A DNA stretch of 64,000 nucleotides. Source: Polaromonas sp. (GTDB lineage Bacteria; Pseudomonadota; Gammaproteobacteria; Burkholderiales; Burkholderiaceae_C). This document shows positions 1,105 through 64,000 of the stretch, one piece after another (positions within the stretch are counted from its first letter, which is position 1; each line of letters opens with the position of its first letter). The stretch lies in NCBI GenBank assembly GCA_013823635.1, contig PNML01000005.1:1742-65741 (forward strand), given 5' to 3'. The translations under genes and the position numbers were made by a program. The notes under the pieces are model-generated. The model made no database searches, was not told the origin of the DNA, and saw nothing but the letters and a program-made list of their open reading frames with translations.

Positions 1105-2001
1105 ATGAACAGATTGGGTTTTATCGGTGCTTCGCTGGTGTTGGCTCTGGCCATCCTCAGCTCCACCGTGTTCGTGGTCGACCAGCGCCAGTTTGGTGTG
1201 GTGTACCAGTTGGGGCAAATCCGCAGCGTGATCACCGAGCCGGGGCTGAACTTCAAAATGCCGCCCCCGCTGCAAAACGTGTCCTACATCGACAAGCGCT
1301 TGCTCACGCTGGACAGCACCGATGCCGAGCCCATGCTGACCGCCGAGAAGCAGCGCGTGGTGATTGACTGGTACGTGCGCTGGCGCGTGTCAGAGCCCCA
1401 GGAGTACATCCGCAACGTGGGGTTGGACGAACGGGCGGGGGCATTGCAGCTGACCCGCGTGGTGCGGAACGCGTTTCAGCAAGAGGTGAACAAGCTCACC
1501 GTGAACGAGCTGTTGTCCACCAAGCGCGACGCGCTCATGAACGACGTGCGCACCCAGGTGCTCAGCGCGGTGCGCAGCGCCGAAAAGCCCTGGGGCATGG
1601 ACGTGGTGGACGTGCGCATCAACCGCGTGGATTACTTCGAAACCATCACCGAATCGGTCTACCGCCGCATGGAGGCCGAACGCCAGCAGGTGGCCAACCA
1701 GCTGCGCTCCACCGGCGCTGCCGAGGGGGAGCAGATTCGTGCATCCGCCGACAGGCAGCGTGAGGTGACGCTGGCCAACGCCTACCGCGAGGCCCAGAAA
1801 GTCAAGGGCGATGGCGATGCCGAGGCGGCCCGCACCTACGCCGAGGCGTTTGGCAAAGACGCGTCGTTCGCCCAGTTCTACCGCAGCCTGGAGGCCTACA
1901 AGTCCAGTTTTGCCAACAAGTCAGACGTGGTGGTGGTGGACCCTTCGTCGGAATTTTTCAAAGCCATGCGCAGCAGCAACATCGGCAACACTGGCAAATG
2001 A
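1105..2001 (+). CDS. hflC: HflC, SPFH/band-7 partner of HflK
   Basis: 298-aa protein with an N-terminal TM and an SPFH domain (VDQRQFGVVYQLGQI). It occupies the canonical position after hflK. Confidence 0.9.
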   Translation: MNRLGFIGASLVLALAILSSTVFVVDQRQFGVVYQLGQIRSVITEPGLNFKMPPPLQNVSYIDKRLLTLDSTDAEPMLTAEKQRVVIDWYVRWRVSEPQEYIRNVGLDERAGALQLTRVVRNAFQQEVNKLTVNELLSTKRDALMNDVRTQVLSAVRSAEKPWGMDVVDVRINRVDYFETITESVYRRMEAERQQVANQLRSTGAAEGEQIRASADRQREVTLANAYREAQKVKGDGDAEAARTYAEAFGKDASFAQFYRSLEAYKSSFANKSDVVVVDPSSEFFKAMRSSNIGNTGK

Positions 2002-2016
2002 GCGGGCGCTTCGCCC

Positions 2017-2202
2017 ATGCTTGACAGCCTGTGGTTGGCTTTGGCCCTCGTGTTCATCATCGAGGGCCTTTTTCCTTTTGTGTCGCCATCGGCGTGGCGC
2101 CAAACATTCACGGCCCTGCTGGGTTTGACCGACGGTCAGATCCGCTTCTTCGGTTTGTTCGCCATTTTGCTGGGGCTGGCCGGGCTGGTTTTTCTGGCCT
2201 GA
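2017..2202 (+). CDS. small two-TM membrane protein, DUF2065-like
   Basis: 61-aa hydrophobic ORF (LALALVFIIEGLFPFVSPSAWRQ...). It lies immediately after hflC, the usual position for this family in betaproteobacteria. Confidence 0.65.
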   Translation: MLDSLWLALALVFIIEGLFPFVSPSAWRQTFTALLGLTDGQIRFFGLFAILLGLAGLVFLA

Positions 2203-2246
2203 GTGGACCCGGTAAAATCCCTTTTTTAACAGCTCCCTGAAAACAC

Positions 2247-4828
<2,582 letters not shown>

Positions 4829-4879
4829 TTTTCAATAAAAAGTGCCTCCAGCGCTTTACTGATAACACTTGTCAGCTAT
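4829..4879 (-). repeat. AT-rich 51-nt dispersed repeat, copy A (purA/PRTase spacer)
   Basis: Reverse complement reads ATAGCTGAC aagtgttatcagta AAGCGCTG gaggcac TTTTTATTGAAAA. G+C is 19/51. Confidence 0.85.
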
Positions 4880-4897
4880 ATATTTTTGGAGTAAGCC

Positions 4898-10195: not shown

Positions 10196-12118
10196 TCAGG
10201 CGCTTGTGGCCAGCTCCGGCAGCGGCACCAGGTGCTGGGCGCCGAAGACCTCCGGCGGAACGGGGCGCCCCAGCAGGTAGCCCTGAACGGTGTCACACCC
10301 CTGGGCGCGCAGCCACGCCAGCTGTTGGTCGGTTTCCACCCCTTCGGCCACCACCCGGAACCCCAGCCTGTGGGCCATGGCCAGGGTGGCGTCCACCACG
10401 GCGGTGCTGCGGGCGTGTGGGTCATGGGGGTTGTTCTGCCCCAGACCTGCGACAAACGACTTGTCCACCTTCAGCACGTCCAATTCCAGCACGCGCAGGT
10501 AAGACAGCGACGAGTAGCCGGTGCCAAAGTCGTCCAGCGCCACCTCAAACCCGGCCTGACGCAGCCGCTGCAGCGCCGCAATGGCGGTGCCGTCCGGGTC
10601 GAGCAGCACCGACTCGGTGACCTCCACCGCCAACCAGTGGCTGTCCACCCCCATCCGCTGTGCGGCGGTCAGCCAGTCCAGATCCACCGCCGATGTCCGA
10701 AACTGCTTGGGGGACAGGTTGACACCCAGCCGAAAACCCACTGGTAACCGGTCTTGCCACTTTTTGACCTGTTGCAGCGCCTGGTGCATGACCATCTTGC
10801 CCAGCGCATCGATGAGGCCTGACTCCTCGGCCACCGGGATGAACAGGTCCGGTCTGACCATCTGACCCCCGTCCTGCCAGCGCAGCAGGGCCTCTGCCCC
10901 CACCAGTTGACCGGTACGGGCATCAAACTGGGGTTGGTAGTGCAAGCTCAGGTCAGGGGTGTCGATGGCGGCCCGCAGGCGGTTTTCCAGTTTCACCTGG
11001 TGGCTCATGCGCTCGTCCATGAGTCTGGAGTAGCGCTGCCATTGGCCACCACCGCGGGCTTTGGCCTCGTACATGGCCATGTCGGCGTGGCGCAGCAGGG
11101 TGTCGGCGTCCTGTCCATCCGGTGGGAACAAGGCCATGCCCACGCTGGCCTTGATCTGCAACGTGTGCTCACCGAGCGTCACTGGCTGCGCCACACAGTT
11201 CAACAGCCTGTCTGCCACACCGTTTGCCTCCGATTCATGGGCCAGCACGCTGAGCAACACAATCAACTCGTCACCCCCCTGGCGGGCCAGGAGGTCATAA
11301 GGCCTCAGGGCTGAGGGCAGACGCAAGCTCAGTGCCTTGAGCAACTCGTCACCGGCCCAATGGCCCAGCGTGTCGTTGACGTTTTTGAATCGATCAAGGT
11401 CCACAAACAACAACCCCACCAGGTGCTGCTGGCGGGTGGCTTGTGCCAACGCTGCCGGCAACCGTTCCACCAGGCAGCGCCGGTTGGGCAGGCCCGTCAG
11501 TTGGTCGGTCAGGGCCAGTTCGCGCATGTGCTGTTCGCGCAGCACCCGCTCGGTCACATCGCTCACGGACCCGGCCATGAGTCGGGCGGTTTTGCCTCGG
11601 GTGTTGGCCACCAAGCCGCGCGCCGCCAGCCACCGGTATTCGCCGTTTTGGGCCTTGACCCGGTACTCACAATAAAAGTGGTCGGTCAGGCCTTTGAGGT
11701 GGGCGTTGACGGCTTGGTTGAAACTGGCCCTGTCTTCGGGGTGGACCACGGCCAGCCAGGCATCCGAGGTGGGCAGAAAGTCCTGGGTGTAGCCCAGAAT
11801 TTCCAACAGGCGACGCCCAACAGAGAGCCGCTTGGTCACGGGATCCCACTCGAACATGCCGTCGTGAGACCCTGCCATGGCCAACCTCAGGATTTGCAAT
11901 GACCGCTTGATCCGCGGCAACAAGGCCAGGGCCCCCAGCAAGCCCAAGGCACTGGCGGCCCAGGCTGCGGTGGCCAGTGCATCGCGCCACGGACCTTCAG
12001 GCACCCAGTGCGTGAGGCCCCAGCCCACCACAGACCCAACCACTGCCACCAGCAGGCACACACCCAGCCAGTCAGGCAAACGGTCAAGGGACAGGGGGTG
12101 CAGGTGTCTGCGCAGCAT
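10196..12118 (-). CDS. membrane PAS-GGDEF-EAL c-di-GMP signalling protein
   Basis: Two N-terminal TM segments precede a PAS region. GGDEF domain: RPYD I-site and GGDEL. EAL domain: EALLRW and [10 protein letters not shown]. Confidence 0.85.
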
Positions 12119-13398: not shown

Positions 13399-13409
13399 TG
13401 ATAAAATAA

Positions 13410-13460
13410 ATAGCTAACAAATGAATATATAAAAGCGCTGGACGGTGTTTTTATTGAAAA
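13410..13460 (+). repeat. AT-rich 51-nt dispersed repeat, copy B (SDR/chrA spacer)
   Basis: ATAGCTAAC aaatgaatatataa AAGCGCTG gacggtg TTTTTATTGAAAA. G+C is 15/51. Confidence 0.85.
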
Positions 13461-15088: not shown

Positions 15089-17722
15089 TCATGGCAACAC
15101 CTGCAAGGACGAGGTCCAACGGCTGGGCTGCAGCTGCAAGGGCCGGTATTGCACCTTGGCCCACGCGGCCGACATGTCGCGGTAACGCGACGACAACACG
15201 TTGCCACTCTGGCCCGTCTGGTAGATGAACACGCTTTTCTCCAGGTCCGCCAGGTCATACACCGCGCGCAAGGATGCGGCGTGGCGGTTGGCATACGGCT
15301 GCGCTGGGTTGTCCAGCTGAAACTGGCCGACGTTGACCGTGAAGGTGTCGCCGCCGGAGGGCACACTGACTTCAAAGGCTGGCGCCAGCAGCTTCACATT
15401 GCTGAAAGGCTGGTGCTTGGACACGGCGGGGTGGGCCTGGCCCCAGCGCCACTGGTCAACCCTAGGGCCATGGCGGGCCTGCAATTCGGTCAGGGCGGTG
15501 GCCAGCGCCCGCGAAGATGCGGCGGCACAACCGCCCTCCCCGCACCAAAAACCGTCGTTGCGGGCCAAGGCGTCTTCCATGGCGGTGCGGAAATGGCGCT
15601 TGCCGTACAAGGCCTTGGTTTTGGTTTCGCCCAGCGTGCGCACCAGCGCTTGCCGGGTGAACACATCTGCCCACGCAGAGAAAATCAGCGGTGCGGCGTG
15701 GTCCGCGCGCATCACACCGTCAAAGTGGGCCAATGCCTGTTGGGCGGCGGCGGCCAGGGGGTGGTCTGATGGGGTGTTTTGCAGCACCGGCAACAGTTTC
15801 AGGGTGGCCAGCGACAGTTCATCGGCCTGCAAGGCCTGCATGGACTCGCGGGTGTGGCGCGGCGTGGCCTGCAGCAGGGTTTCAATGCGCTGCTGGCGAT
15901 ACGGGTAGGTCCAGTCCTGGGTGATGAAATGCGGGTAGTCGGTGCCGTGGATGCGCTGGTTGGCGGTGGCCAGCCAGCCCCGCTGTTGCGCCTGGGCCGA
16001 GGCCGTGTGCCGGGCCGCAGCGGCGGCTGGGGTGGTGTCGGGGTGGAAGGTGGGGCTGGACGGCTCACCCAGGCGTACCTCGGGTGTGTCGGCATAGGGT
16101 ATCCAGCCATGCCAGTCGTAGCGGCGCTCCCATCCGGGTGACGGCGCCACGCCCCGGATGTCGTTGTCCGGGCCTCGCACGGGCACCTTGCCCGCCGCCT
16201 TGTAGGCCACATGCCCCTGCACGTCGGCCACCACCACGTTTTGCATGGGTGAGTGGTAGTGGCGGTAGGCGTGCAGCAGCTCGTCCACGCTGCGGGCGCG
16301 GTTGCCTTCCAGCCCGGCCAGCACCGTGTGGTTGTCGGCGTCCAGCGCGCTCCAGCGCAATGCCAGCACAAACCGGCGGGTGTCCAGCAGTTCGGTGTGG
16401 CTGGCCTGGGCGTCGCTCAGCACCGGGCCGTGGCGCGTGCTGCGCACCGTGTGGCGGACCTCGCCCTGCCCTTTCACCCGGATGATTTCCTCACGCGTGT
16501 CAAAGTCGGCCCAGGCGGCTGGCTGGCCGGGGGGCGCGGGCACGCGGTACTGCGCGGGGTTGTCGGGGTTGATCTCCTCCAGGTACAGGTCCTGCACATC
16601 GGGGGCGGTGTTGGTGAAGCCCCAGGCCAGGTGGGCGTTGCGGCCCAGCACCACAAAGGGCAGACCTGGCAGGGTGGCCCCCGTGACGTCCAGCTCGCCC
16701 TGACCGACTGCTGCGGGTGATTGCAGCCGGGCAAAGTACCAGACGGCCGGGGCGCTCAGGCCCAGGTGGGGGTCGTTGGCCAAGAGCGGACGCCCGCTGT
16801 GGGTGTGCGACCCCGCCACCACCCAGTTGTTGGAGCCCTTGCCATCCACCTCGCCCAGGGTGTGGGCCCAGTCGTTCACCGCTTGGGCCAAGGTGGTGGA
16901 CGCGGCGCGGGTCAACGTTGAATAAAAATTGACTCCATCGCTTTCTGCTGTTGGCTTTGCAGCTGCGTTTTTTGCAAATGGTGTGGCGCTGCTGTCGGCG
17001 TACACCCCCAGTCCCCGGTAGAGCTGGGCCAGGTCGGCGGTGGCGGCCGGCGGCTCTCCGGGGTAGGCTGGGAAGAGCTGCCACAGGCGCTCGGTGTCCA
17101 GCACCTGCAGGCTGGAGAGCCGCGCGAACTCGTTGCCCCAGTTGCCGCCCAGGTCCAGCGCCATCATCAGGGCCCAGCCCATGGCGTCGGTGGGGGTCCA
17201 GAAACGGCCCTCGCGTGCGGCGGCGCGGGGGTCAATGCCCAAGGCCAGAAACTCGGGCGTGAGCGCCTGCTGGCTGTGGGCCATGAAGCTGTTCACACCG
17301 TCGGCGTAAGCCTGCAGTGCGGCCTGGGCTGCGGTGGGCAGGCCCTGCCACTGGCGTTCGGCGGCCTGCCGAATGCCCAGGGTGCGCAGCAGTTTGTCGG
17401 TGGGCAGCGTGGCGGGCCCCAGCACCTCGGACAGTGTGCCGTGCATCACCCGCCGGTTGAACTCCAGCTGCCACGCCCGTTCCTGGGCGTGCACCATGCC
17501 CAGGGCTTTGAAGGCGTCCAGCGGGGTCTGCGCCAGGATGTGGGTCACATCGGCGGCATCGCGTTGGATGTGCACCGCCGCACCCAGGCCATCCAGGTGG
17601 GTGACACCCTGCATTTGGGGCTGGCTGCGCAGCGCATACACGGCGGTGGTGGCGCCCACGGCCAGAGCGGCGGCGCCGAGCAGGCCCAACACGGCCAGGG
17701 AGATTCGGGTCAATGGGGTCAT
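15089..17722 (-). CDS. penicillin-acylase-family Ntn hydrolase (possible acyl-homoserine-lactone acylase)
   Basis: 877 aa with a signal peptide. The beta-subunit N-terminal nucleophile context is GKGSNNWVVAG. Overall length is typical of PvdQ/QuiP/AiiD-type acylases. Confidence 0.85.
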   Translation of the reverse strand: MTPLTRISLAVLGLLGAAALAVGATTAVYALRSQPQMQGVTHLDGLGAAVHIQRDAADVTHILAQTPLDAFKALGMVHAQERAWQLEFNRRVMHGTLSEVLGPATLPTDKLLRTLGIRQAAERQWQGLPTAAQAALQAYADGVNSFMAHSQQALTPEFLALGIDPRAAAREGRFWTPTDAMGWALMMALDLGGNWGNEFARLSSLQVLDTERLWQLFPAYPGEPPAATADLAQLYRGLGVYADSSATPFAKNAAAKPTAESDGVNFYSTLTRAASTTLAQAVNDWAHTLGEVDGKGSNNWVVAGSHTHSGRPLLANDPHLGLSAPAVWYFARLQSPAAVGQGELDVTGATLPGLPFVVLGRNAHLAWGFTNTAPDVQDLYLEEINPDNPAQYRVPAPPGQPAAWADFDTREEIIRVKGQGEVRHTVRSTRHGPVLSDAQASHTELLDTRRFVLALRWSALDADNHTVLAGLEGNRARSVDELLHAYRHYHSPMQNVVVADVQGHVAYKAAGKVPVRGPDNDIRGVAPSPGWERRYDWHGWIPYADTPEVRLGEPSSPTFHPDTTPAAAAARHTASAQAQQRGWLATANQRIHGTDYPHFITQDWTYPYRQQRIETLLQATPRHTRESMQALQADELSLATLKLLPVLQNTPSDHPLAAAAQQALAHFDGVMRADHAAPLIFSAWADVFTRQALVRTLGETKTKALYGKRHFRTAMEDALARNDGFWCGEGGCAAASSRALATALTELQARHGPRVDQWRWGQAHPAVSKHQPFSNVKLLAPAFEVSVPSGGDTFTVNVGQFQLDNPAQPYANRHAASLRAVYDLADLEKSVFIYQTGQSGNVLSSRYRDMSAAWAKVQYRPLQLQPSRWTSSLQVLP
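16916..16966 (-). repeat. AT-rich 51-nt dispersed repeat, diverged copy inside the acylase CDS
   Basis: Reverse complement reads GCAGCTGCA aagccaacagcaga AAGCGATG gagtcaa TTTTTATTCAACG. It matches copy A at 31/51 positions. It shares 13 nt (AGCTGCAAAGCCA) exactly with copy C1. Confidence 0.65.
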
Positions 17723-22129: not shown

Positions 22130-22180
22130 ATGTGAACCAAATAGCCACCAAGCGCTTGATGGATATGGCTTTGCAGCTAT
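22130..22180 (-). repeat. AT-rich 51-nt dispersed repeat, copy C1 (left arm of head-to-head pair)
   Basis: Reverse complement reads ATAGCTGCA aagccatatccatc AAGCGCTT ggtggct ATTTGGTTCACAT. Confidence 0.7.
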
Positions 22181-22192
22181 AAAATTAATTGT

Positions 22193-22243
22193 ATAGCTGA
22201 CCATTCAATGACCACAAGCGTCAGAGGCTGATTTTTCGTATTT
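22193..22243 (+). repeat. AT-rich 51-nt dispersed repeat, copy C2 (right arm of head-to-head pair)
   Basis: ATAGCTGAC cattcaatgaccac AAGCGTCA gaggctg ATTTTTCGTATTT. Confidence 0.85.
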
Positions 22244-22255
22244 TTTGACGGGACA

Positions 22256-28589: not shown

Positions 28590-29678
28590 TCAGCTCAGGT
28601 CGGCCAAGGGGTGGGCGTGTGCCGGCCAGGGGCTCTGGAAAAACGGGGCCACCATGTCGGGGGTGACGTCCTCGGCGCGGGCGGGGTGCCAGCGGGGGGC
28701 ATGGTCCTTGTCCACCGCCAGGGCACGGATGCCCTCCACCGTTTCGCTGCTGGCGCCGCTGCGCCCCAAGTGAACGGCGTGGAAGCAGTGGCGCACCATG
28801 TCGCGCTCCATGCGCAAATCGTCTGCCAGGCCCATTTTTCGCGCTCGCCTCACCTGTTCCAGCACCACATGCAACATCAGCGGTGAACGCTGGCGCAACA
28901 CCGCCGCGGTTTCCGTGGCAAACGTGGAGGTGCCGCGCTCCAGTGCCGCGAGTATCTCAGGCACTGTGCCCAGAGAAAAATACTCATCAATTTGCGACCT
29001 GGCGCTTTTGTATATTGGTGTGGGTGCTATCAACTTGGTGGACACCAGGTGTTCCACGGCATTGGCCGACTGGAACGGCGTTGCCCCCAATTCTGCCCAC
29101 AGCACGTTCAAGCGCCCGGAGTCGATGCAACCATCGGCCAGGCCCCAGGCGACGGCATCACCGGCCTCCAGGCTCTGGCCGGTCAGGGCCAGCCACTCAC
29201 CGACCCGACCCGGGCAGCGGCTGAGGAAAAAGCCCCCACCCACATCAGGAAACAGGCCGATGCCGGTTTCCGGCATGGCCATGCGGGTGCGCTGGGTGAC
29301 CACACGCAGGCTGCCTCCCTGGCTGATGCCCATGCCGCCGCCCATGACCACACCGTCCATGAACGCGATGTAAGGCTTGGGGTAGGTGTGGATGAGGTGG
29401 TTGAGCCGGTACTCTTCGGTGAAAAAGTCCTCCAGCCGGGGGTCGCCCGCGAGAGCAGCCTGGTGGAAAAACCGGATGTCGCCTCCCGCGCAAAAGTGGC
29501 CAAACGGTGCCTCCTTGCCCGTGCCGCGGATGGCGACGGCCAGCACCTCGGGGTCATCGCGCCAGCGCAGCAGCGTGGCGGTGAGGTCGCGCACCATGTC
29601 CAAGGTGAGCGCGTTGAGTGCGCGTGGTCGGTTGAGGCTGATGAAACCCACACTGCCCTGCTGCTGGACCATCACCAT
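28590..29678 (-). CDS. enoyl-CoA hydratase/isomerase family, 3-hydroxyisobutyryl-CoA-hydrolase type
   Basis: Motifs FISLNRPRALNAL, FCAGGDIR and MDGVVMGGGMGIS are present. The ORF is open to 29819, but third-position GC is lower upstream, so I preferred ATG 29678. The start is uncertain. Confidence 0.7.
   Translation of the reverse strand: MVMVQQQGSVGFISLNRPRALNALTLDMVRDLTATLLRWRDDPEVLAVAIRGTGKEAPFGHFCAGGDIRFFHQAALAGDPRLEDFFTEEYRLNHLIHTYPKPYIAFMDGVVMGGGMGISQGGSLRVVTQRTRMAMPETGIGLFPDVGGGFFLSRCPGRVGEWLALTGQSLEAGDAVAWGLADGCIDSGRLNVLWAELGATPFQSANAVEHLVSTKLIAPTPIYKSARSQIDEYFSLGTVPEILAALERGTSTFATETAAVLRQRSPLMLHVVLEQVRRARKMGLADDLRMERDMVRHCFHAVHLGRSGASSETVEGIRALAVDKDHAPRWHPARAEDVTPDMVAPFFQSPWPAHAHPLADLS
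28980..29030 (-). repeat. AT-rich 51-nt dispersed repeat, diverged copy inside the HIBCH-type hydrolase CDS
   Basis: Reverse complement reads ATAGCACCC acaccaatatacaa AAGCGCCA ggtcgca AATTGATGAGTAT. It matches copy B at 29/51 positions, including 10/14 in the N14 block. Confidence 0.5.
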
Positions 29679-32601: not shown

Positions 32602-33591
32602 TCAATGTTTCAAGTCTTCAAAAATGGGGGCACTGGCGCGGTTGGCCTGTGCCTGTATCTGCTGGATTTCCAAGGGGTTGAGCAGGCGGTTGGGCACCAG
32701 CTCCCCGCCCGCAATGTGTGCCGTCCCCAGCAAGCTGTTGGGCGTGGGCCCAAACACCGCCACCTCGGCGGTGTCTGGCAAGGTGGTGCGGCGGCGCAAT
32801 CCGCTCAGGAAGCGGCCTGCATCTTCGTCGCACAAGGTGACAGGGTGGTGATGGGACAACAGCGCGGTGACCGGCATCAGGGCCGCCACGCGCAGGTCTT
32901 CGTCCATTGCTTCCAGGTCGGCCAGGCTGACGCAGTCGTGGGCCAGGTAGTCGCCCGTCTGGGTGCGCCGCAACGCCCGCAGGTGGCCCACGGTGCCCAA
33001 TGCCTTGGCCACGTCTTCACCCAGGGTGCGGATGTAGGTGCCTTTGCTGCAATATGCCTCAATTTCAATAGCTACAAAGTCTTTCACATCAAGCGATAGA
33101 CTCAATTTTAATTCATAAATTTCGATGTGGCGGGGTTCGCGGACAACCTCCACCCCTGCCCTGGCGTACTCGTACAAGGCCTTGCCGTCTTTTTTGAGGG
33201 CCGAGTACATGGGGGGCACCTGGGTCTGGGGACCGGTCATGGCCGCCGCCACACGGGCCAACAGGGCGGGTGTCACTTCGGGCACGGCGCAGGTCTGCAC
33301 CACATCGCCTTCCGCATCGCCGGTGGCGGTCGCTTGGCCGAGGCACAGCAGGGCCCGGTAACGCTTGCGGGCGTCCAGGTGTTGCTGGCTGAACTTGGTG
33401 GCTGCGCCAAAGCACAGCGGCAACACGCCGGTGGCCAGCGGGTCCAGCGTACCGGTGTGCCCGGCTTTGTCGGCGCGCAGCAACCACTTGGCCTTTTGCA
33501 AGGCCTGGTTGCTGGAAAGACCCAGCGGTTTGTCGAGCAACAACACCCCATGCACAGGGCGCCGCTGCACCCTGGTGCGTGGCGCGTTCAT
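32602..33591 (-). CDS. truB: tRNA pseudouridine(55) synthase
   Basis: [12 protein letters not shown] (catalytic Asp) and [10 protein letters not shown] motifs. It lies downstream of rbfA. Confidence 0.9.
33068..33118 (+). repeat. AT-rich 51-nt dispersed repeat, diverged copy inside the truB CDS (antisense)
   Basis: ATAGCTACA aagtctttcacatc AAGCGATA gactcaa TTTTAATTCATAA. It matches copy E at 31/51 positions and the acylase copy at 22/25 over the 8-mer-to-tail part. Confidence 0.6.
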
Positions 33592-46958: not shown

Positions 46959-47009
46959 TTATCGGTATTTTTGACATCTAGCGCCTGCGTTTATTGAATA
47001 GTCAGCTAT
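46959..47009 (-). repeat. AT-rich 51-nt dispersed repeat, copy D (fabI/ligase spacer)
   Basis: Reverse complement reads ATAGCTGAC tattcaataaacgc AGGCGCTA gatgtca AAAATACCGATAA. It ends 9 nt before the ligase ATG. Confidence 0.8.
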
Positions 47010-47018
47010 TCATTTTTT

Positions 47019-47855
47019 ATGCAAGCGTTGCCCAGGCGCCTGTGGTTGATGTGGGCCAGTGTGGCCTGTGCATCGGCATGGGCCGGGCCACCCGCCCTGA
47101 TGCTGGCCAACGTGTACCGGCCGTCGCTGGACTTGGACGCCTATTGGGTCAGCGAGAAATACGACGGGGTGCGTGGCTACTGGGACGGTGAGCGCCTGTT
47201 CACCCGGGGCGGCGAGGCCATTGGCGCGCCCGCCTGGTTCACCCAGGGCTGGCCCACCACGCCGCTGGATGGTGAACTCTGGGGCGGTCGGGGCCAGTTC
47301 GCCCGAACGGTGTCCACCGTGAAGTCCCAACGCTCCGACGACGGTGCCTGGCGGCAGCTGCGTTTCATGGTGTTTGACCTGCCGGCCCACGAAGGCAGCT
47401 TCACCGAGCGGCTGCAAGCCCTGGCGCCGCTGGTGTCGGCCCTGGGGCAACCGTGGGTCCAGCCGGTCAGGCAGTGGCGTGTGTCACACCACGCTGAACT
47501 CAACGCCCAGCTCCAGCGCCTGGTCAAAGCCGGTGCCGAAGGCCTGATGCTGCACCGGGGAGACTCCCTCTACCGCGCCGTGCGCAGCGACGACCTGGTC
47601 AAGCTCAAAACCCACGACGATGCCGAGGCCACGGTGCTGGCCCACCTGCCAGGCCAGGGCAAACACGCGGGCCGACTGGGGGCCCTGTGGGTGGAAACGC
47701 CGCACGGCGTCCGATTCAAACTGGGCACGGGGTTCACCGACGCACAGCGCGAACACCCGCCCGCCGTGGGCAGCGTGGTCACCTACCGCTACCGGGGGCT
47801 GAACGACAGCGGTGTGCCGCGGTTTGCCAGCTTCCTGCGGGTGCGCCCGGATTGA
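47019..47855 (+). CDS. minimal ATP-dependent DNA ligase with signal peptide (Lig E type)
   Basis: Signal peptide MQALPRRLWLMWASVACASAWA and adenylation motif I EKYDGVRG. Nucleotidyltransferase plus OB domains only; 278 aa. Confidence 0.8.
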   Translation: MQALPRRLWLMWASVACASAWAGPPALMLANVYRPSLDLDAYWVSEKYDGVRGYWDGERLFTRGGEAIGAPAWFTQGWPTTPLDGELWGGRGQFARTVSTVKSQRSDDGAWRQLRFMVFDLPAHEGSFTERLQALAPLVSALGQPWVQPVRQWRVSHHAELNAQLQRLVKAGAEGLMLHRGDSLYRAVRSDDLVKLKTHDDAEATVLAHLPGQGKHAGRLGALWVETPHGVRFKLGTGFTDAQREHPPAVGSVVTYRYRGLNDSGVPRFASFLRVRPD

Positions 47856-59332: not shown

Positions 59333-59392
59333 CAGCCAACGCCCGGTGCCAACCGGTGGCGGGAACACCCGCTGGTCGAAAACTCAAATTAG

Positions 59393-59443
59393 ATAGCTGA
59401 CTGTTGTTTAAAATAAAGCGCTGCAAGCGTTTTTTATTCATTT
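59393..59443 (+). repeat. AT-rich 51-nt dispersed repeat, copy E (cysB/ybdL spacer)
   Basis: ATAGCTGAC tgttgtttaaaata AAGCGCTG caagcgt TTTTTATTCATTT. Confidence 0.85.
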
Positions 59444-59459
59444 TTTCATTGAAGCCACG

Positions 59460-60632
59460 ATGAACCCGCCCGCCACCCCCGCCCTGACCAGCCGCCTGCC
59501 CCAGGTCGGCACCACCATCTTCAGCGTGATGTCGGCGCTGGCCGTGCAGCACCAGGCCGTCAACCTGGGTCAGGGCTTCCCCGACTTTGACTGTGACCCC
59601 CGGCTGGTCGATGCCGTGACCGCCGCCATGCGCGCCGGGCACAACCAGTACCCGCCCATGCCCGGCGTGCCCGCGCTGCGCCAGGCCGTGGCCGACAAAA
59701 TCGAGCGCCTGTATGGTCACCGCTACAACCCCGACACCGACATCACCGTCACCGCCGGGGCCACCCAGGCCATCCTGACGGCCATCCTCGCCATCGTCCA
59801 CCCGGGCGACGAGGTCATCGTGCTGGAGCCGTGCTACGACAGCTACGTGCCCAACATTGAACTGGCCGGTGGTGTGGCCGTGCGCGTGCCCCTCACCCCC
59901 GGCACCTTCCGGCCCGACTTTGACCTGATTGCCGCGGCCATCACCCCGCGCACCCGCGCCATCATCACCAACAGCCCGCACAACCCCAGCGCCACCATCT
60001 GGCGCCACGCCGACATGCTGCGCCTGCAAGAGCTGCTGGCCCCCACCAACGTGCTGCTCATTTCGGACGAGGTGTACGAGCACATGGTGTACGCGCCCAA
60101 CCGCCACCTGAGCGCGTCCAGCTACCCCGGCCTGGCGGCACGGGCGTTCGTGGTCAGCAGCTTTGGCAAAACCTTCCACGTCACCGGCTGGAAAGTGGGC
60201 ACCGTGGCCGCCCCCGCGCCGCTGATGGCCGAGTTCCGCAAGGTGCACCAGTTCAATGTGTTCACCGTCAACACACCCATGCAGCACGGCCTGGCCCGCC
60301 ACCTGGCCGACCCCGCGCCCTACCTGGACCTGCCCGCCTTCTACGCCGCCAAGCGCGACCTGTTCCGCCAGGGGCTGGCGCCAACCCGCTTTCAGTTGCT
60401 GCCCAGCGAAGGCAGCTACTTCCAATGCGTGGGCATTGCCGACCTGTCCGTGCCCGAGCGCGACCTGCCAGAAGCCGAGTTTTGCCAGTGGCTGACGCGC
60501 GAAGTGGGCGTGGCCGCCATTCCCCTGTCGGCCTTTTACGGCAACGGGTTTGACCAGAAAGTGGTTCGCTTTTGCTTTGCCAAGCAAGACGACACGCTGC
60601 GCGCGGCGCTGGGGCGGCTGGCGCGGTTGTGA
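59460..60632 (+). CDS. ybdL: PLP-dependent aminotransferase, YbdL (methionine aminotransferase) type
   Basis: LPQVGTTIFSVMSALAVQHQAVNLGQGFPDFD closely parallels the E. coli YbdL N-terminus. The SFGKTF context holds the PLP lysine. Confidence 0.8.
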   Translation: MNPPATPALTSRLPQVGTTIFSVMSALAVQHQAVNLGQGFPDFDCDPRLVDAVTAAMRAGHNQYPPMPGVPALRQAVADKIERLYGHRYNPDTDITVTAGATQAILTAILAIVHPGDEVIVLEPCYDSYVPNIELAGGVAVRVPLTPGTFRPDFDLIAAAITPRTRAIITNSPHNPSATIWRHADMLRLQELLAPTNVLLISDEVYEHMVYAPNRHLSASSYPGLAARAFVVSSFGKTFHVTGWKVGTVAAPAPLMAEFRKVHQFNVFTVNTPMQHGLARHLADPAPYLDLPAFYAAKRDLFRQGLAPTRFQLLPSEGSYFQCVGIADLSVPERDLPEAEFCQWLTREVGVAAIPLSAFYGNGFDQKVVRFCFAKQDDTLRAALGRLARL

Positions 60633-61334: not shown

Positions 61335-61569
61335 CGCTGGCACGCTGCTGTTGGTCCCTTGGGGCTGTTGCCGGTGGCGGCGGGCAACGTCGGGGTGGAT
61401 TGCTCGACCTGGCAGCGGCTCGCGCCGCCATCACCGCACAGGTTCAGATTGGGTGGGCTGCTGGGCATGTGGCCGATGGTGCCCTGCCGCGGCCGCCGCG
61501 GTCACGCCAACCGACCAATCCCCTGCGCTTGGGCTGGAATTGGACCCGTCGGTGGTCGCCCACCCCCGT

Positions 61570-64000
61570 TCACTGGTTCAACTGTGCCCAGGCCTTGTCC
61601 AGCCGCTTGGTGCTCACGGGCTGGGGCGTGCGCAGCTCCTGCGCGAAGAAGCTGATGCGCAGTTCTTCCAGCAGCCAGCGGAACTCGGCCATGCGGTCGT
61701 CCACCTGGCCCTTGCGTTCGGCCACCAGCCGCCAGTAGCGCTGTTCCTGGGGCTTGAGGTCGGCCAGCCGGGCGGCATCGCGGGCGGGGTCGGCCTTGTA
61801 TTTGTCCAGCCGGGCCTGCACGCCTTTGAGGTAGCGCGGCAGGTGCTGCAACTGGGCCCAGGGCGTGTCGATCAAAAACCGCTTGCCCACCAACCGGGCG
61901 AGTTGCTGCTGCACGTCGGTGGCCACATCGGCGGGCGGTCTGCTGTCCTTGAGCTTGCGCTGGGCGGCCGTGTGCTCGGTCAGGATGGTGCCGCACAGGC
62001 GGGCCACTTCGTTGGCAATGAGGGTGAGTCGACCCCGCCCTTCGGCCAGGCGGGTGTGGAAGGCGGTGGCATCGGTGGGCAGGGGGTCGAGCAGGAAGGC
62101 GCGGTCCATGGCCACATCGAGCAGCAGGGTTTTGAGCTCTTCAGCGGTGCCAAGTGACATGTAGGCCACACCCATGGCCTGCAGGCCGGGGATGTTTTTT
62201 TCCAGGTACTTGAGCGCGTCTTTGACTTGCAGCGCAAACAGGCGGCGCAGGCCCGCGCGGTGTTTGGCGCTGGCGGTCTCGGGCTCGTCAAACACCTCGA
62301 TGCTGACACCGTCGCCCTGGTCGATGAGGGCCGGAAAGCCAATCAGCGTTTGCCCGCCTTTTCTGATTTCCATCAGCTCGGGCAGCTCACCAAAGGCCCA
62401 GGTGGTGTGTTTGACGCCCGTCACATCGGTGGTTTTTGGTGGCTTTTCAGGTGATTTTTCGGATGATTTGGTATGTTTTTCAGTAGCGTTCATCGCTTTA
62501 TTGGAAAGCGATGAGGCGCTGCCAGAGGCTGATTTTTCAATCCTGTTTTTATCTATCGTTTCAGGAGCATTCAATTTCAACGCAGCCAGCGCCTGAAACG
62601 CCCCGCGCGCCTTGCCGCCCAGCTCGGCCTTGAGGGCGGCCAGGCTGCGGCCTGCGCCCAACTGGCGGCCATGCTCGTCCACCACGCGCAGGTGCATGAG
62701 GTGGTGGGGTTGCAGCATGTCGGCCTTGATGTCGCCGCGTTTGATGTCCAGCTGCGTGGCCTCGCGCACCAGCTTCAGCAACGCATCCATCAAGTTGCCG
62801 TGGCCAAAAGCCTCGGGCTGGGTGAGCGCGGCGGTGAAGCGGTTGGCCGTTTCGGGCAGCGGCACCAGGCGCGAGCGGGGGCGCTGGTGCAGGGTTTTGA
62901 GCAGGGCCAGCACCTTGTCTTTCAGCATGCCGGGCACCAGCCATTCGCAGCGGTCTTCGCTGACCTGGTTCAGCACAAACAGCGGCACGGTCACGGTCAG
63001 TCCGTCTTTGGCATCGCCGGGTTCGTGCAGGTAGGTGGCGGCGCAATCCACCCCGCCCAGCCGCACCACTTTGGGGAAGGATTCGGTGGTGATGCCAGCG
63101 GCCTCATGGCGCATCAGCTCTTCTTTGGTGAGCATCAGCAGGCGGGGCTGTTTTTTCAGCTCGGCGCTGTACCAGCGCTCAAAGCTGGCGCCGGTGCACA
63201 CGTCATCGGGCACTTGGGCAGCGTAAAAGGCGTAAATCAGCTCGTCGTCCACCAGCACGTCCTGGCGGCGGGCTTTGTGCTCCAGCTCGGCCACCTGGCG
63301 GATAAGCTTTTGGTTGGCGGGCAAAAACGGCAGGCGGCGCGGCCAGTCGTCGGGCACCAGGCCTTCGACCAGCGCCTGACGGATGAAGATGTCGCGCGCG
63401 GCGTGCGGGTCGAGTTTGCTGAAGTTGACGCGCCGCCCCTGGTACACCGGCAGGCCGTACAGGCTGGCGCGCTCGTGGGCCGTCACCTGGGCCGTGCGCT
63501 TGTCCCAACTGGGGTCGGACGTTTGGCGCTTGAGCAAATGGCCGCCCACCTCCTCCAGCCACTGCGGCTCGATGGCGGCAATGCCCCGGCCAAACAGGCG
63601 GGTGGTTTCCACCAGCTCGGCCACCACGATCCAGCGGCCCGGCTTTTTGCTCAGGTTGGCACCGGGGTGGCGGTGAAACTTGATGCCGCGTGCCCCCAGG
63701 TACCACTCTTCCGTCTCGCTTTTGCAGCCCACGTTGCCCAGCAGCCCGGCCAGCATGCTTTTGTGCAGCGCGTCGTACCCGGCGGGCGTGGTGTTGAGGG
63801 GCCAGTTGTGCTCGGCCACCACGGTGTGCAGCTGGGTGTGGATGTCGCGCCACTCGCGCACGCGGCGCACGTTGATGAACTGCTCGCGCAGCTGGTTTTC
63901 CTGCTGGCGGTGGCTGAGTTTGTGGGTGGGCTTGGTGGTGTCGTCACCTTCGACGGTGGGCACCATGCCCGCGCGGTGGCCGCGCAAGCCCTCCAGCCAG
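61570..64000 (-). CDS. hrpA: ATP-dependent RNA helicase HrpA, C-terminal part (N-terminus outside window)
   Basis: YLGARGIKFHRHPGANLSKKPGRWIVVAELVETTRLFGR, then a long DUF3418-type C-terminal region. The frame is open to the window edge. Confidence 0.85.
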   Translation of the reverse strand, partial: WLEGLRGHRAGMVPTVEGDDTTKPTHKLSHRQQENQLREQFINVRRVREWRDIHTQLHTVVAEHNWPLNTTPAGYDALHKSMLAGLLGNVGCKSETEEWYLGARGIKFHRHPGANLSKKPGRWIVVAELVETTRLFGRGIAAIEPQWLEEVGGHLLKRQTSDPSWDKRTAQVTAHERASLYGLPVYQGRRVNFSKLDPHAARDIFIRQALVEGLVPDDWPRRLPFLPANQKLIRQVAELEHKARRQDVLVDDELIYAFYAAQVPDDVCTGASFERWYSAELKKQPRLLMLTKEELMRHEAAGITTESFPKVVRLGGVDCAATYLHEPGDAKDGLTVTVPLFVLNQVSEDRCEWLVPGMLKDKVLALLKTLHQRPRSRLVPLPETANRFTAALTQPEAFGHGNLMDALLKLVREATQLDIKRGDIKADMLQPHHLMHLRVVDEHGRQLGAGRSLAALKAELGGKARGAFQALAALKLNAPETIDKNRIEKSASGSASSLSNKAMNATEKHTKSSEKSPEKPPKTTDVTGVKHTTWAFGELPELMEIRKGGQTLIGFPALIDQGDGVSIEVFDEPETASAKHRAGLRRLFALQVKDALKYLEKNIPGLQAMGVAYMSLGTAEELKTLLLDVAMDRAFLLDPLPTDATAFHTRLAEGRGRLTLIANEVARLCGTILTEHTAAQRKLKDSRPPADVATDVQQQLARLVGKRFLIDTPWAQLQHLPRYLKGVQARLDKYKADPARDAARLADLKPQEQRYWRLVAERKGQVDDRMAEFRWLLEELRISFFAQELRTPQPVSTKRLDKAWAQLNQ
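62431..62580 (+). repeat. composite AT-rich tract related to the 51-nt repeat family, inside the hrpA CDS
   Basis: 62523-62538 CAGAGGCTGATTTTTC is identical to 22222-22237 of copy C2. GTAGCGTTC-N14-AAGCGATG at 62483-62513 keeps the 9-14-8 spacing. A tail-like TTTTTCGGATGATTTGGTATGTTTTT lies at 62455-62480. Confidence 0.6.

Follow-up and report, generated by a model that had tools for sequence, protein, structure and literature searches.

The window analysed here, a 64,000-nucleotide stretch of DNA from Polaromonas sp., ends within hrpA, whose minus-strand open reading frame (61570-64000) and translation give the C-terminal 809 codons of a DEAH-box ATP-dependent RNA helicase, the gene continuing past the window end. 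Homologues sharing 68-100% identity are annotated as HrpA and carry PF07717, PF21010 and PF11898, and the Pfam domains of P0001, a protein 100% identical to it, and of its homologues are the OB_NTP_bind, HA2_C and DUF3418 C-terminal region of an HrpA (DEAH/RHA) helicase. E. coli HrpA is an orthologue with identical domain order; its structures 9ggr and 9gft match the window protein with E=4e-136, and 9ggr covers both halves. The C-terminal region of E. coli HrpA has been studied by cryo-EM on collided disomes (PMC11419001; PDB 9ggr/9gft), where the alpha+beta-2 domain (residues 997-1077) touches h39 and uS10 of the stalled ribosome (PMC11419001). The insertion point described below corresponds to E. 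coli residues ~1008-1019, within this domain.

Near this point, base composition bears out the AT-rich tract that a sequence-only reading had placed at 62431-62580, with 42-46% GC over 62400-62599 versus 64.7% for the window and 60-76% for flanking hrpA. The minus-strand frame is open and reads ...LKLNAPETIDKNRIEKSASGSASSLSNKAMNATEKHTKSSEKSPEKPPKTTDVTGVKHTTWAFGELPE..., a Ser/Lys/Glu-rich peptide lying, as that reading had it, just before TTWAFGELPE. The tract is part of an expansion loop (62410-62580, minus strand; fragment residues 474-530), hypervariable and hydrophilic, which lies between the conserved anchors GAFQALAA and HTTWAFGELPE. Between these anchors the loop has 57 aa in the window versus a median of 7 aa in 119 diverse HrpAs, and ~60 residues of the window protein stand against ~10 of E. 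coli HrpA at the site in their alignment. Every Comamonadaceae orthologue examined has a loop of 40-110 aa. The ~40-50 extra residues that had been anticipated are therefore present (~50 more than in E. coli and most HrpAs), but they cannot be attributed to this one element, since in Hydrogenophaga, the sister group, the loop is about as long and the repeat is not recognisable; for the same reason the loop may be older than the repeat copy. Orthologues have, at the same place, a segment of similar length and different sequence, rather than one matching in both. The reading frame is intact in 78 of 84 sequences (83 fetched loci and the window) despite the varying loop length. Nucleotide identity is 0.51-0.72 in the loop versus 0.82-0.94 in the flanks, and pN/pS is 0.45-0.74 versus 0.05-0.28, indicating relaxed constraint and a loop that appears to evolve almost neutrally. 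An AlphaFold2 (AF2) model gave residues 476-539 its lowest pLDDT (25-31) and no secondary structure; as only 40 sequences went into its alignment and the mean pLDDT of the whole model is 55.6, too weak for a fold search, it serves only as a hint that the loop peptide is disordered.

The core of the tract is a degenerate copy of a dispersed repeat (62477-62540, plus strand, antisense to hrpA; nhmmer and alignments) with a GTAGCG head, a spacer, AAAGCGATGAGGC and a T-run tail. The repeat has the order TAGCTGCTTGCGC…AAGCGCTGGAGGC…T-run, and the copy aligns collinearly with the linkers of relatives and with the repeat consensus. The proposal that the tract was built from repeat-family sequence holds for this core (0/1000 shuffles, see below) and not for all 150 nt, of which only ~60 nt (62477-62540) are demonstrably repeat-derived. 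Several finer observations were confirmed, including the 9-14-8 spacing of GTAGCGTTC (62483-62491), N14 and AAGCGATG (62506-62513), the identical AAGCGATG in the penicillin-amidase (acylase) copy, and the 16-mer CAGAGGCTGATTTTTC common to 62523-62538 and 22222-22237, which occurs exactly twice in the window and still at two sites with up to 2 mismatches (0.03 matches expected). An additional 10-mer, TGATTTTTCG (62452-62461 = 22229-22238), fits the suggested resemblance to the tail of the intergenic copy at the second of these places. To the left of the core, short tandem duplications at 62428-62469 (plus strand), consisting of a 10-nt unit GGTGGCTTTT (x2) and a 12-nt unit TTTTCAGATGAT (x2.2), encode the EK/PEK-rich part of the loop and score low in Tandem Repeats Finder (33 and 38).

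The family itself appears to be a 60-70 nt repeat dispersed across Comamonadaceae, with a consensus of roughly (A/G)TAGCTGCTTGCGCTT, a short spacer, AAGCGCTGGAGGC, and then one or two T-runs. Leave-one-out nhmmer searches of the window support intergenic copies at 4829-4886 (minus strand, E=1.6e-8), 13403-13460 (plus strand, E=4.8e-9) and 46972-47020 (minus strand, E=1.3e-4), a copy directly upstream of the ORF starting at 59460 (59381-59446, plus strand, E=1.3e-6), and two adjacent intergenic copies in opposite orientations with no ORF over them (22133-22251, E ~2e-6 each), the right-hand one holding the 16-mer. The head is GTAG in the window hrpA copy and in L032, L003, L006d, L079, L073 and L082b, and ATAG in the four clear intergenic window copies, L006 and L084. 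Neither terminal inverted repeats nor target-site duplications were seen in alignments or in the repeat search. A further candidate within an enoyl-CoA hydratase ORF (c28960) is probably no family member, having failed the leave-one-out search (E=2). Among PLSDB plasmids, a near-consensus copy had no BLAST match, and literature searches returned no account of the repeat in Comamonadaceae or of repeats in HrpA, an absence that is no proof in itself.

A profile of eight copies outside hrpA matches 62477-62520 (plus strand) at 11.4 bits, with E=0.015 in an nhmmer search of the whole window and E=0.004 when 78 linkers are searched, and none of 1000 dinucleotide shuffles reaches the 11.4-bit score of the tract with this profile. 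It also matches the linkers of relatives L082 (7e-12), L006 (6e-8) and L004 (6e-4), and further those of L077, L073, L079, L007, L060, L038, L056 and L030, every match with E<0.05 being on one strand; a profile of the window's intergenic copies matches the L032, L006 and L003 linkers with E ~1e-3 to 6e-3. In the reciprocal direction, a profile of the copies embedded in relatives' hrpA (window excluded) finds known intergenic family copies as its top four window matches, led by 59381-59446. These results bear on the reading that the tract is not repeat-derived at all, and is instead an AT-rich low-complexity linker arising from slippage and compositional drift whose likeness to the repeats is due to chance. 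Such an origin would agree with the short tandem units in the left part (Tandem Repeats Finder), with the low identity to the consensus in collinear register, where only the short head, AAAGCG and a T-run match clearly, and with nhmmer profiles drawn from the window alone (of 9 copies or, more strictly, of 4 intergenic ones), for which the tract is not significant (E=2-18, wrong strand); likewise, a window intergenic-copy profile scores 2.1 bits on the tract, on the wrong strand, a value reached by 17/1000 shuffles. It is nevertheless very unlikely, and largely refuted, given the composition-matched shuffles with an independent profile, the positional orthologues down to E=7e-12 on a single strand, the reciprocal matches, and an exact 16-mer at an expectation of 0.03. 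As window-only profiles are not significant on the tract, its link to the family is made through relatives: membership of the window tract taken alone is only borderline significant, the match exceeds chance at the superfamily level, and the tract is closer to a cross-genus 'TAGCTGCTTGCGC' subfamily than to the window's own AT-rich intergenic copies.

Collinear copies are found at the identical site, strand and frame in at least 10 related genomes, and relatives have far better-preserved copies there, with E values down to 7e-12. The linker DNAs of the window and 8 relatives, nine members of one clade, are collinear, L085 and L086 of the same monophyletic clade have a copy at the same site, and L006 and L084 hold near-consensus copies of the form TAGCT-N14-AAGCGCTGGAG. 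The family-invariant TAGC and AAAGCG are kept in most of the nine clade copies, and the rest of the loop diverges. Because the copies are collinear in at least 10 related genomes, the hrpA copy is inherited within the clade and has decayed; it is neither recent nor an insertion peculiar to this genome. The idea of a genuine in-frame insertion into a linker thus survives in that the copy is in frame and repeat-derived, and fails in that it is not genome-specific. None of the close relatives has an empty site, so neither an act of insertion nor its limits or a target-site duplication can be demonstrated. The copies range from near-consensus to almost erased.

One part of the copy is window-specific: a replaced patch at 62513-62530 (plus strand), recognised from the clade linker alignment, the tree and the 16-mer search, reads GAGGCGCTGCCAGAGGCT where relatives have AAAGCACTTTTTGAATCA. 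On the tree a T-run is the ancestral state here, and the patch creates the exact 16-mer at 62523-62538. An 11-12 nt duplication model was rejected because the clade members align collinearly and do not differ in length here; the apparent doubling of the 8-mer block falls with it, as the second block (62513-62530) stands in place of the repeat's first T-run and adds no length. A competing account, possible but clearly less probable than inheritance with decay, is that new insertions or gene conversion re-seed or overwrite the site time and again, so that each hrpA copy tracks the repeats of its own genome. This would explain why an 18-nt patch produces a 16-mer identical to part of the dispersed copy at 22222, and it is consistent with the CCAGAG that L005 independently has at the patch site, the 86% identity (56 nt, E=2e-12) between the L082 embedded copy and dispersed copies at the same locus, the near-consensus copy of Acidovorax L084 where other Acidovorax (L035, L062) have none, and the unrelated repeat families that fill the same loop in Limnohabitans. 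Within the window's clade, however, copies and flanks are collinear and match the gene tree, and neither target-site duplications nor empty sites were seen; the one strand and frame of every recognisable hrpA copy also argues for inheritance, although selection for an open frame explains it equally well.

The copy overlaps a near-perfect 16-bp hairpin (62484-62520; repeat search) with perfect 10-bp arms (62490-62499 and 62505-62514) and an ATTGG loop. The plus strand folds with a dG of -20.4 kcal/mol and the mRNA sense with -17.2 kcal/mol (z ~-5.5 on both strands); the 64 kb contain only 6 perfect hairpins with 10 bp or more, this one included, and the others are terminator-like. Stems are present in the window (10-16 bp), L004, L006 and L085, absent in L032, L003 and L001, and weak in the intergenic window copies. 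So stable a structure as the window hairpin, and likewise invariant TAGC/AAAGCG in a fast-evolving loop, is not predicted by pure neutral decay. Both features would be accommodated if the copy were kept in hrpA as a nucleic-acid element (for instance by binding a protein, extruding as a DNA cruciform, or forming an mRNA hairpin that affects hrpA translation or mRNA stability) with the peptide as a by-product, and L004, L006 and L085 have palindromes of their own. We regard such a role as improbable: L032 and L003, the closest relatives, have no hairpin (z ~0); the hairpin position varies between lineages; the apparent motif conservation is inflated, as the alignment is anchored on TAGC/AAAGCG; and the element is missing from Hydrogenophaga and Variovorax. 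Nor do regulatory searches favour it, as a promoter/terminator scan of 61400-63400 found no promoter-like sites and no more terminator-like sites than chance would give (two weak ones, of which 62418-62432 borders the tract on the left), and Rfam at gathering thresholds found one tRNA only in the whole window and no family at the tract.

We therefore favour, with a probability of roughly 0.75, the reading that the tract core is an old, decayed copy of a dispersed repeat, translated as near-neutral filler of an HrpA loop. A copy of the 60-70 nt Comamonadaceae repeat would have entered, by insertion, a loop of the alpha+beta-2 domain in the ribosome-binding C-terminal region of HrpA, a site with ~7-10 residues in most bacteria. 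It lies antisense to hrpA, and its frame is that of every recognisable hrpA and Tex copy found and is open through several copies. The loop presumably tolerates almost any hydrophilic filler, which would be why the copy was kept, translated within a probably disordered spacer that may have no specific function, and left to near-neutral drift. Local events would have added further change, namely short tandem duplications and clustered multi-nucleotide replacements, the latter resembling template switching or micro gene conversion. An unlikely alternative makes the loop a selected protein feature, in which a flexible, charged alpha+beta-2 extension aids binding to collided ribosomes and the repeats serve as raw material for exaptation. 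A loop of 40-110 aa retained in every Comamonadaceae orthologue examined, pN/pS below 1, a composition that is always hydrophilic or Ala/Pro-rich, and the h39 and uS10 contacts of the E. coli domain (PMC11419001) are what selection would lead one to expect; the same loop, however, varies from 40 to 110 aa, from 0.46 to 0.80 in GC and from Lys/Ser/Glu-rich to Ala/Pro-rich, and most bacteria have none. For annotation, a decayed repeat copy would account for a conserved gene containing so unusual an island of AT-rich, low-complexity sequence, which is neither assembly error nor pseudogene.

HrpA is not the only protein to hold the family in frame. Copies occur in Tex of L082, L079 and L073, where they split the Tex_YqgF domain, in a methyltransferase ORF of L006 and in the window penicillin amidase, and a peptide module, xLSxxAQAA(I/T) or IRAQAAPE, recurs in HrpA, Tex and the methyltransferase. 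Other, unrelated repeat families lie in the same HrpA loop and in a second HrpA loop of Limnohabitans. The GC-rich linker hairpins of Hydrogenophaga, which we take to be repeats from their palindromic DNA and their peptide pattern, have no further copies among the fetched loci. Comamonadaceae might, speculatively, harbour an undescribed system like that of the Rickettsia palindromic elements (RPEs), in which one family, always in one strand and frame, has spread into loops of RNA-handling proteins (HrpA and Tex, possibly also TruB). In such a system two loops in the part of HrpA that senses ribosomes would, in different genera, have received repeats again and again, from three or more unrelated families, and embedded copies would be reshaped by hairpin-templated mutation or gene conversion; the 16-bp hairpin of the window hints that they are perhaps kept for a role at the nucleic-acid level.

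The tract appears to be an RPE-like or intragenic REP-like in-frame dispersed repeat, a kind already known: the family is dispersed and multi-copy, the ORF is intact, shorter orthologues exist and other proteins carry copies. The resemblance to RPEs that had been proposed is upheld by a repeat-family core translated in frame within an HrpA linker, as in RPEs and intragenic REPs. RPEs, as the original description (Ogata et al., 2000) is relayed in PMC10969869 and PMC3733652, are small dispersed repeats found between genes and inside unrelated, apparently functional genes, always in frame and adding a peptide segment at permissive sites. The hrpA family is likewise intergenic and in unrelated genes, in frame and adding a peptide module, but it differs in its host (a free-living, GC-rich betaproteobacterium versus reduced intracellular genomes), in its length (~60 nt versus ~100-150 nt) and in the strong decay of the window copy, and a sequence relationship to RPE families is not expected. 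GTAG/CGTC-tagged intragenic REPs, surveyed by Di Nocera et al. (2013, PMC3733652) in a main text that does not mention Comamonadaceae, are short palindromic elements in known protein-coding genes; they encode ~20-30 aa, in many cases of proteins that process nucleic acids. Many family copies similarly start with GTAG or ATAG followed by the quasi-palindrome GCGCTT...AAGCGC, but the element is longer, has AT-rich flanks with T-runs and a short, poorly conserved stem, and has GTAG in some copies only. Enterobacterial ERIC/RU-type MITEs are small mobile intergenic repeats with open frames and occasional in-frame gene fusions (Delihas, PMC2759123, PMC3184786), and the present repeat is also small, intergenic and sometimes in frame within genes; theirs, however, are 100-170 bp with clear terminal inverted repeats, and here neither these nor target-site duplications were seen. 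Rickettsia and the intragenic REP survey supply the best-known examples of repeats inserted in frame, and the tract would add a clear case from free-living, GC-rich freshwater and soil betaproteobacteria, in which one loop of a ribosome-rescue helicase holds several repeat families across genera. With the structure of the host protein solved on collided ribosomes and copies graded from near-consensus to almost erased, these loops may offer a natural series for how selfish DNA turns into protein sequence and for what a ribosome-contacting domain tolerates.

The gene hrpA was identified from its ORF and translation on the minus strand, from 61570 to beyond the end of the window, and a homologue search returned Comamonadaceae HrpA proteins of 68-100% identity, the best-matching being from uncultured Hydrogenophaga relatives. 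The AT-rich, repeat-like tract at 62431-62580 is confirmed: G+C content at 62400-62599 is 42-46% vs 64.7% across the window, and the hrpA frame is unbroken, encoding the peptide quoted in a sequence-only reading of this DNA. Other details of that reading also held, as the 16-mer CAGAGGCTGATTTTTC occurs in the window only at 22222 and 62523 (0.03 matches expected), the 9-14-8 spacing is present, and AAGCGATG is common to the tract and a repeat copy in a penicillin-amidase ORF. A promoter scan found no promoter-like site in or around the tract, and a terminator scan gave one weak terminator-like site at the tract's left end, no more than expected by chance.

In the window, the repeat family consists of AT-rich units of ~60 nt with consensus ...ATAGCTGACAA...AAAGCGCTAGAGGCAATTTTTATTCA..., which matched no Rfam family. 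Copies passing leave-one-out nhmmer (E = 5e-9 to 1e-4) are found at 4829-4886, 13403-13460, 46972-47020 and 59381-59446, and as two head-to-head units in opposite orientation within one intergenic region (22133-22251), an arrangement typical of REP dimers. Candidate 28968-29043 failed this analysis. The penicillin-amidase copy (16910-16964, leave-one-out E=2e-5; minus-strand ORF 15089-17722) is in frame and in sense orientation, and encodes ...AKNAAAKPTAESDGVNFYST.... A family-like segment at 33055-33125 (leave-one-out E=7e-6) is likewise in frame in truB (32602-33591, minus strand), with E=0.0034 using a profile free of truB sequence; compared with E. coli TruB this segment is presumably normal core with only ~4 extra residues, and so looks like replacement or convergence, not insertion.

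The proposal that the hrpA tract is built from repeat-family sequence stands for its core, at the superfamily level, but not for the window's own copies, whose profiles gave no significant match to the tract (nhmmer E=2-18, wrong strand). The link was therefore made via DNA loci fetched from relatives (L numbers). Window-derived profiles match the closest relatives' hrpA linkers, the variable stretch between anchors GAFQALAA and HTTWAFGELPE, at the same position and always antisense to hrpA, with two profiles yielding E ~1e-3 to 6e-3 for L032, L006 and L003 (HrpA identity to the window 90%, 81% and 86%, respectively) and 0.03-0.3 for L004 and L002. The embedded sequence is TTGATAGCTGCTTGCGCTTCATTTGAAAGCGCTGGAGGCTCTTTTTT in L006 and TTTTGATAGCTATTTGCGCAATACCATCAAGCGCTGGAGCCTGTTTTTGCTCATTTTTTTC in L084, an Acidovorax-type locus. 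Linker DNA from nine clade members aligns collinearly with one another and with the repeat consensus, and the top four matches of a profile of the relatives' embedded copies only, in the linker-masked window, are four known family copies. An independent profile was built from only eight dispersed copies, none of them in hrpA and seven of them belonging to other genomes; it matches the tract at 62477-62520 in the correct orientation (E=0.015 over the whole window; 11.4 bits, reached by 0/1000 dinucleotide shuffles of the tract). Its matches to other linkers are far stronger (L082 7e-12, L077 4e-9, L006 6e-8, plus others), with all linker matches at E<0.05 on one strand. The profile, shuffle and collinearity results thus make the tract core a decayed member of the repeat superfamily, nearer to its 'TAGCTGCTTGCGC' subfamily than to the window's own AT-rich copies.

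A neighbor-joining tree places the window sister to (L002/L004, L003/L032), followed outward by L001, L005/L006/L007/L085 and L086, with Hydrogenophaga outside. All members of the window's clade share the hrpA copy, which is therefore inherited and did not arise recently here. Hydrogenophaga HrpA loops contain no recognisable family copy, and copies are also found in hrpA of more distant Simplicispira, Comamonas granuli, Curvibacter, Polaromonas-like MAGs and some Acidovorax, a distribution that fits either one ancient insertion with losses or recurrent insertion or conversion. Between the window and relatives, nucleotide identity is 0.51-0.72 in the loop vs 0.82-0.94 in flanking hrpA, and pN/pS is 0.45-0.74 vs 0.05-0.28. 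Low-scoring tandem duplications of 10 and 12 nt are present towards the left of the tract. Relative to L032 and L003, the window tract has two change clusters: CTGAAACACTAT -> CGTTCATCGCTT in the left arm, and an 18-nt patch (62513-62530) in place of the first T-run, which gives rise to the exact 16-mer in common with the 22222 copy. The L086 embedded copy contains GCGTCAGAGGCTTATTTTTATTTGA, which identifies CAGAGGCT-ATTTTT as a tail motif of the family. The clusters also generate a 16-bp hairpin at 62484-62520 (dG -20.4/-17.2 kcal/mol, z ~-5.5) that is absent from the window's nearest relatives. The clustered changes could reasonably have arisen by template switching within a quasi-palindrome or by micro gene conversion.

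An in-frame insertion into a linker had also been suggested. Alignment to E. coli HrpA shows ~10 residues (1008-1019) between two aligned blocks vs ~60 in the window protein, and the anchor-to-anchor distance, 57 residues here, has a median of 7 (interquartile range 7-10) among 119 HrpA representatives of 50%-identity clusters. All Comamonadaceae orthologues examined have a loop of 40-110 aa. The tract thus appears to be both insertion and linker, the extra ~50 residues agreeing with the suggestion but being inherited across the clade, not recent here. In E. coli HrpA the site falls within the alpha+beta-2 domain (residues 997-1077), part of the C-terminal region with which the protein binds collided ribosomes (PMC11419001). 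In an AF2 model, poor overall (mean pLDDT 55.6), confidence is lowest at residues 476-539, which show no secondary structure.

HrpA loops of Limnohabitans hold other repeats. The first loops encode VIPANAGIH, VIASEARQS and GSDPNF-type peptides, and their DNA matches other sites (E 1e-8 to 1e-23), mostly in the second HrpA loop with a few outside hrpA. This second hypervariable loop lies between LKLWKW..RGG and HKLSxRQ; in Limnohabitans its repeats (L075 9901-9975, L080 9935-9966, L074 3277-3313) translate to SVIPANAGIHAPHGHPVKPGVTKG, SVIASEARQSSGIQ and IGVRSQLNSP and match first-loop repeats at the DNA level, and in the window (~63925-63981, HrpA fragment residues 7-25) it has no obvious repeat. 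In Hydrogenophaga, GC-rich perfect hairpins such as CCCGCTCCC-TCC-GGGAGCGGG are translated within the first loop as SPSPSGRGQGEG...PHPNPLPEGEG (L040 ~11340-11440; also L020 and L025; proteins P0019, P0047 and P0121). A search of the 22-kb loci found no further copies, and the loop seems here to hold a REP-type element of a different kind. Repeat copies across HrpA loops form a hotspot pattern.

Family copies are also found inside the gene for Tex, a transcription accessory protein, in three Polaromonas-like genomes (L082 1946-2001, L079 4675-4726, L073 4127-4175), in frame and with strand and frame as in hrpA. These interrupt the Pfam Tex_YqgF domain and encode SDQSIRAQAAPE-type peptides, like those in the same genomes' HrpA loops. 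Another copy (L006 1902-1939) falls within an MTS-type methyltransferase ORF (1190-2209, minus strand), in its N-terminal portion, and encodes AVSLSEKAQAAT in a frame identical to that in HrpA. We found no description in the literature of this Comamonadaceae repeat family or of repeats in HrpA. Overall, the earlier interpretation of the tract is partly supported, and its likeness to Rickettsia palindromic elements (RPEs) is borne out by analogy: in-frame intragenic repeats are established for RPEs, intragenic GTAG/CGTC REPs and intragenic ERIC/RU elements (PMC10969869, PMC3733652, PMC2759123), and the hrpA repeat behaves like these.
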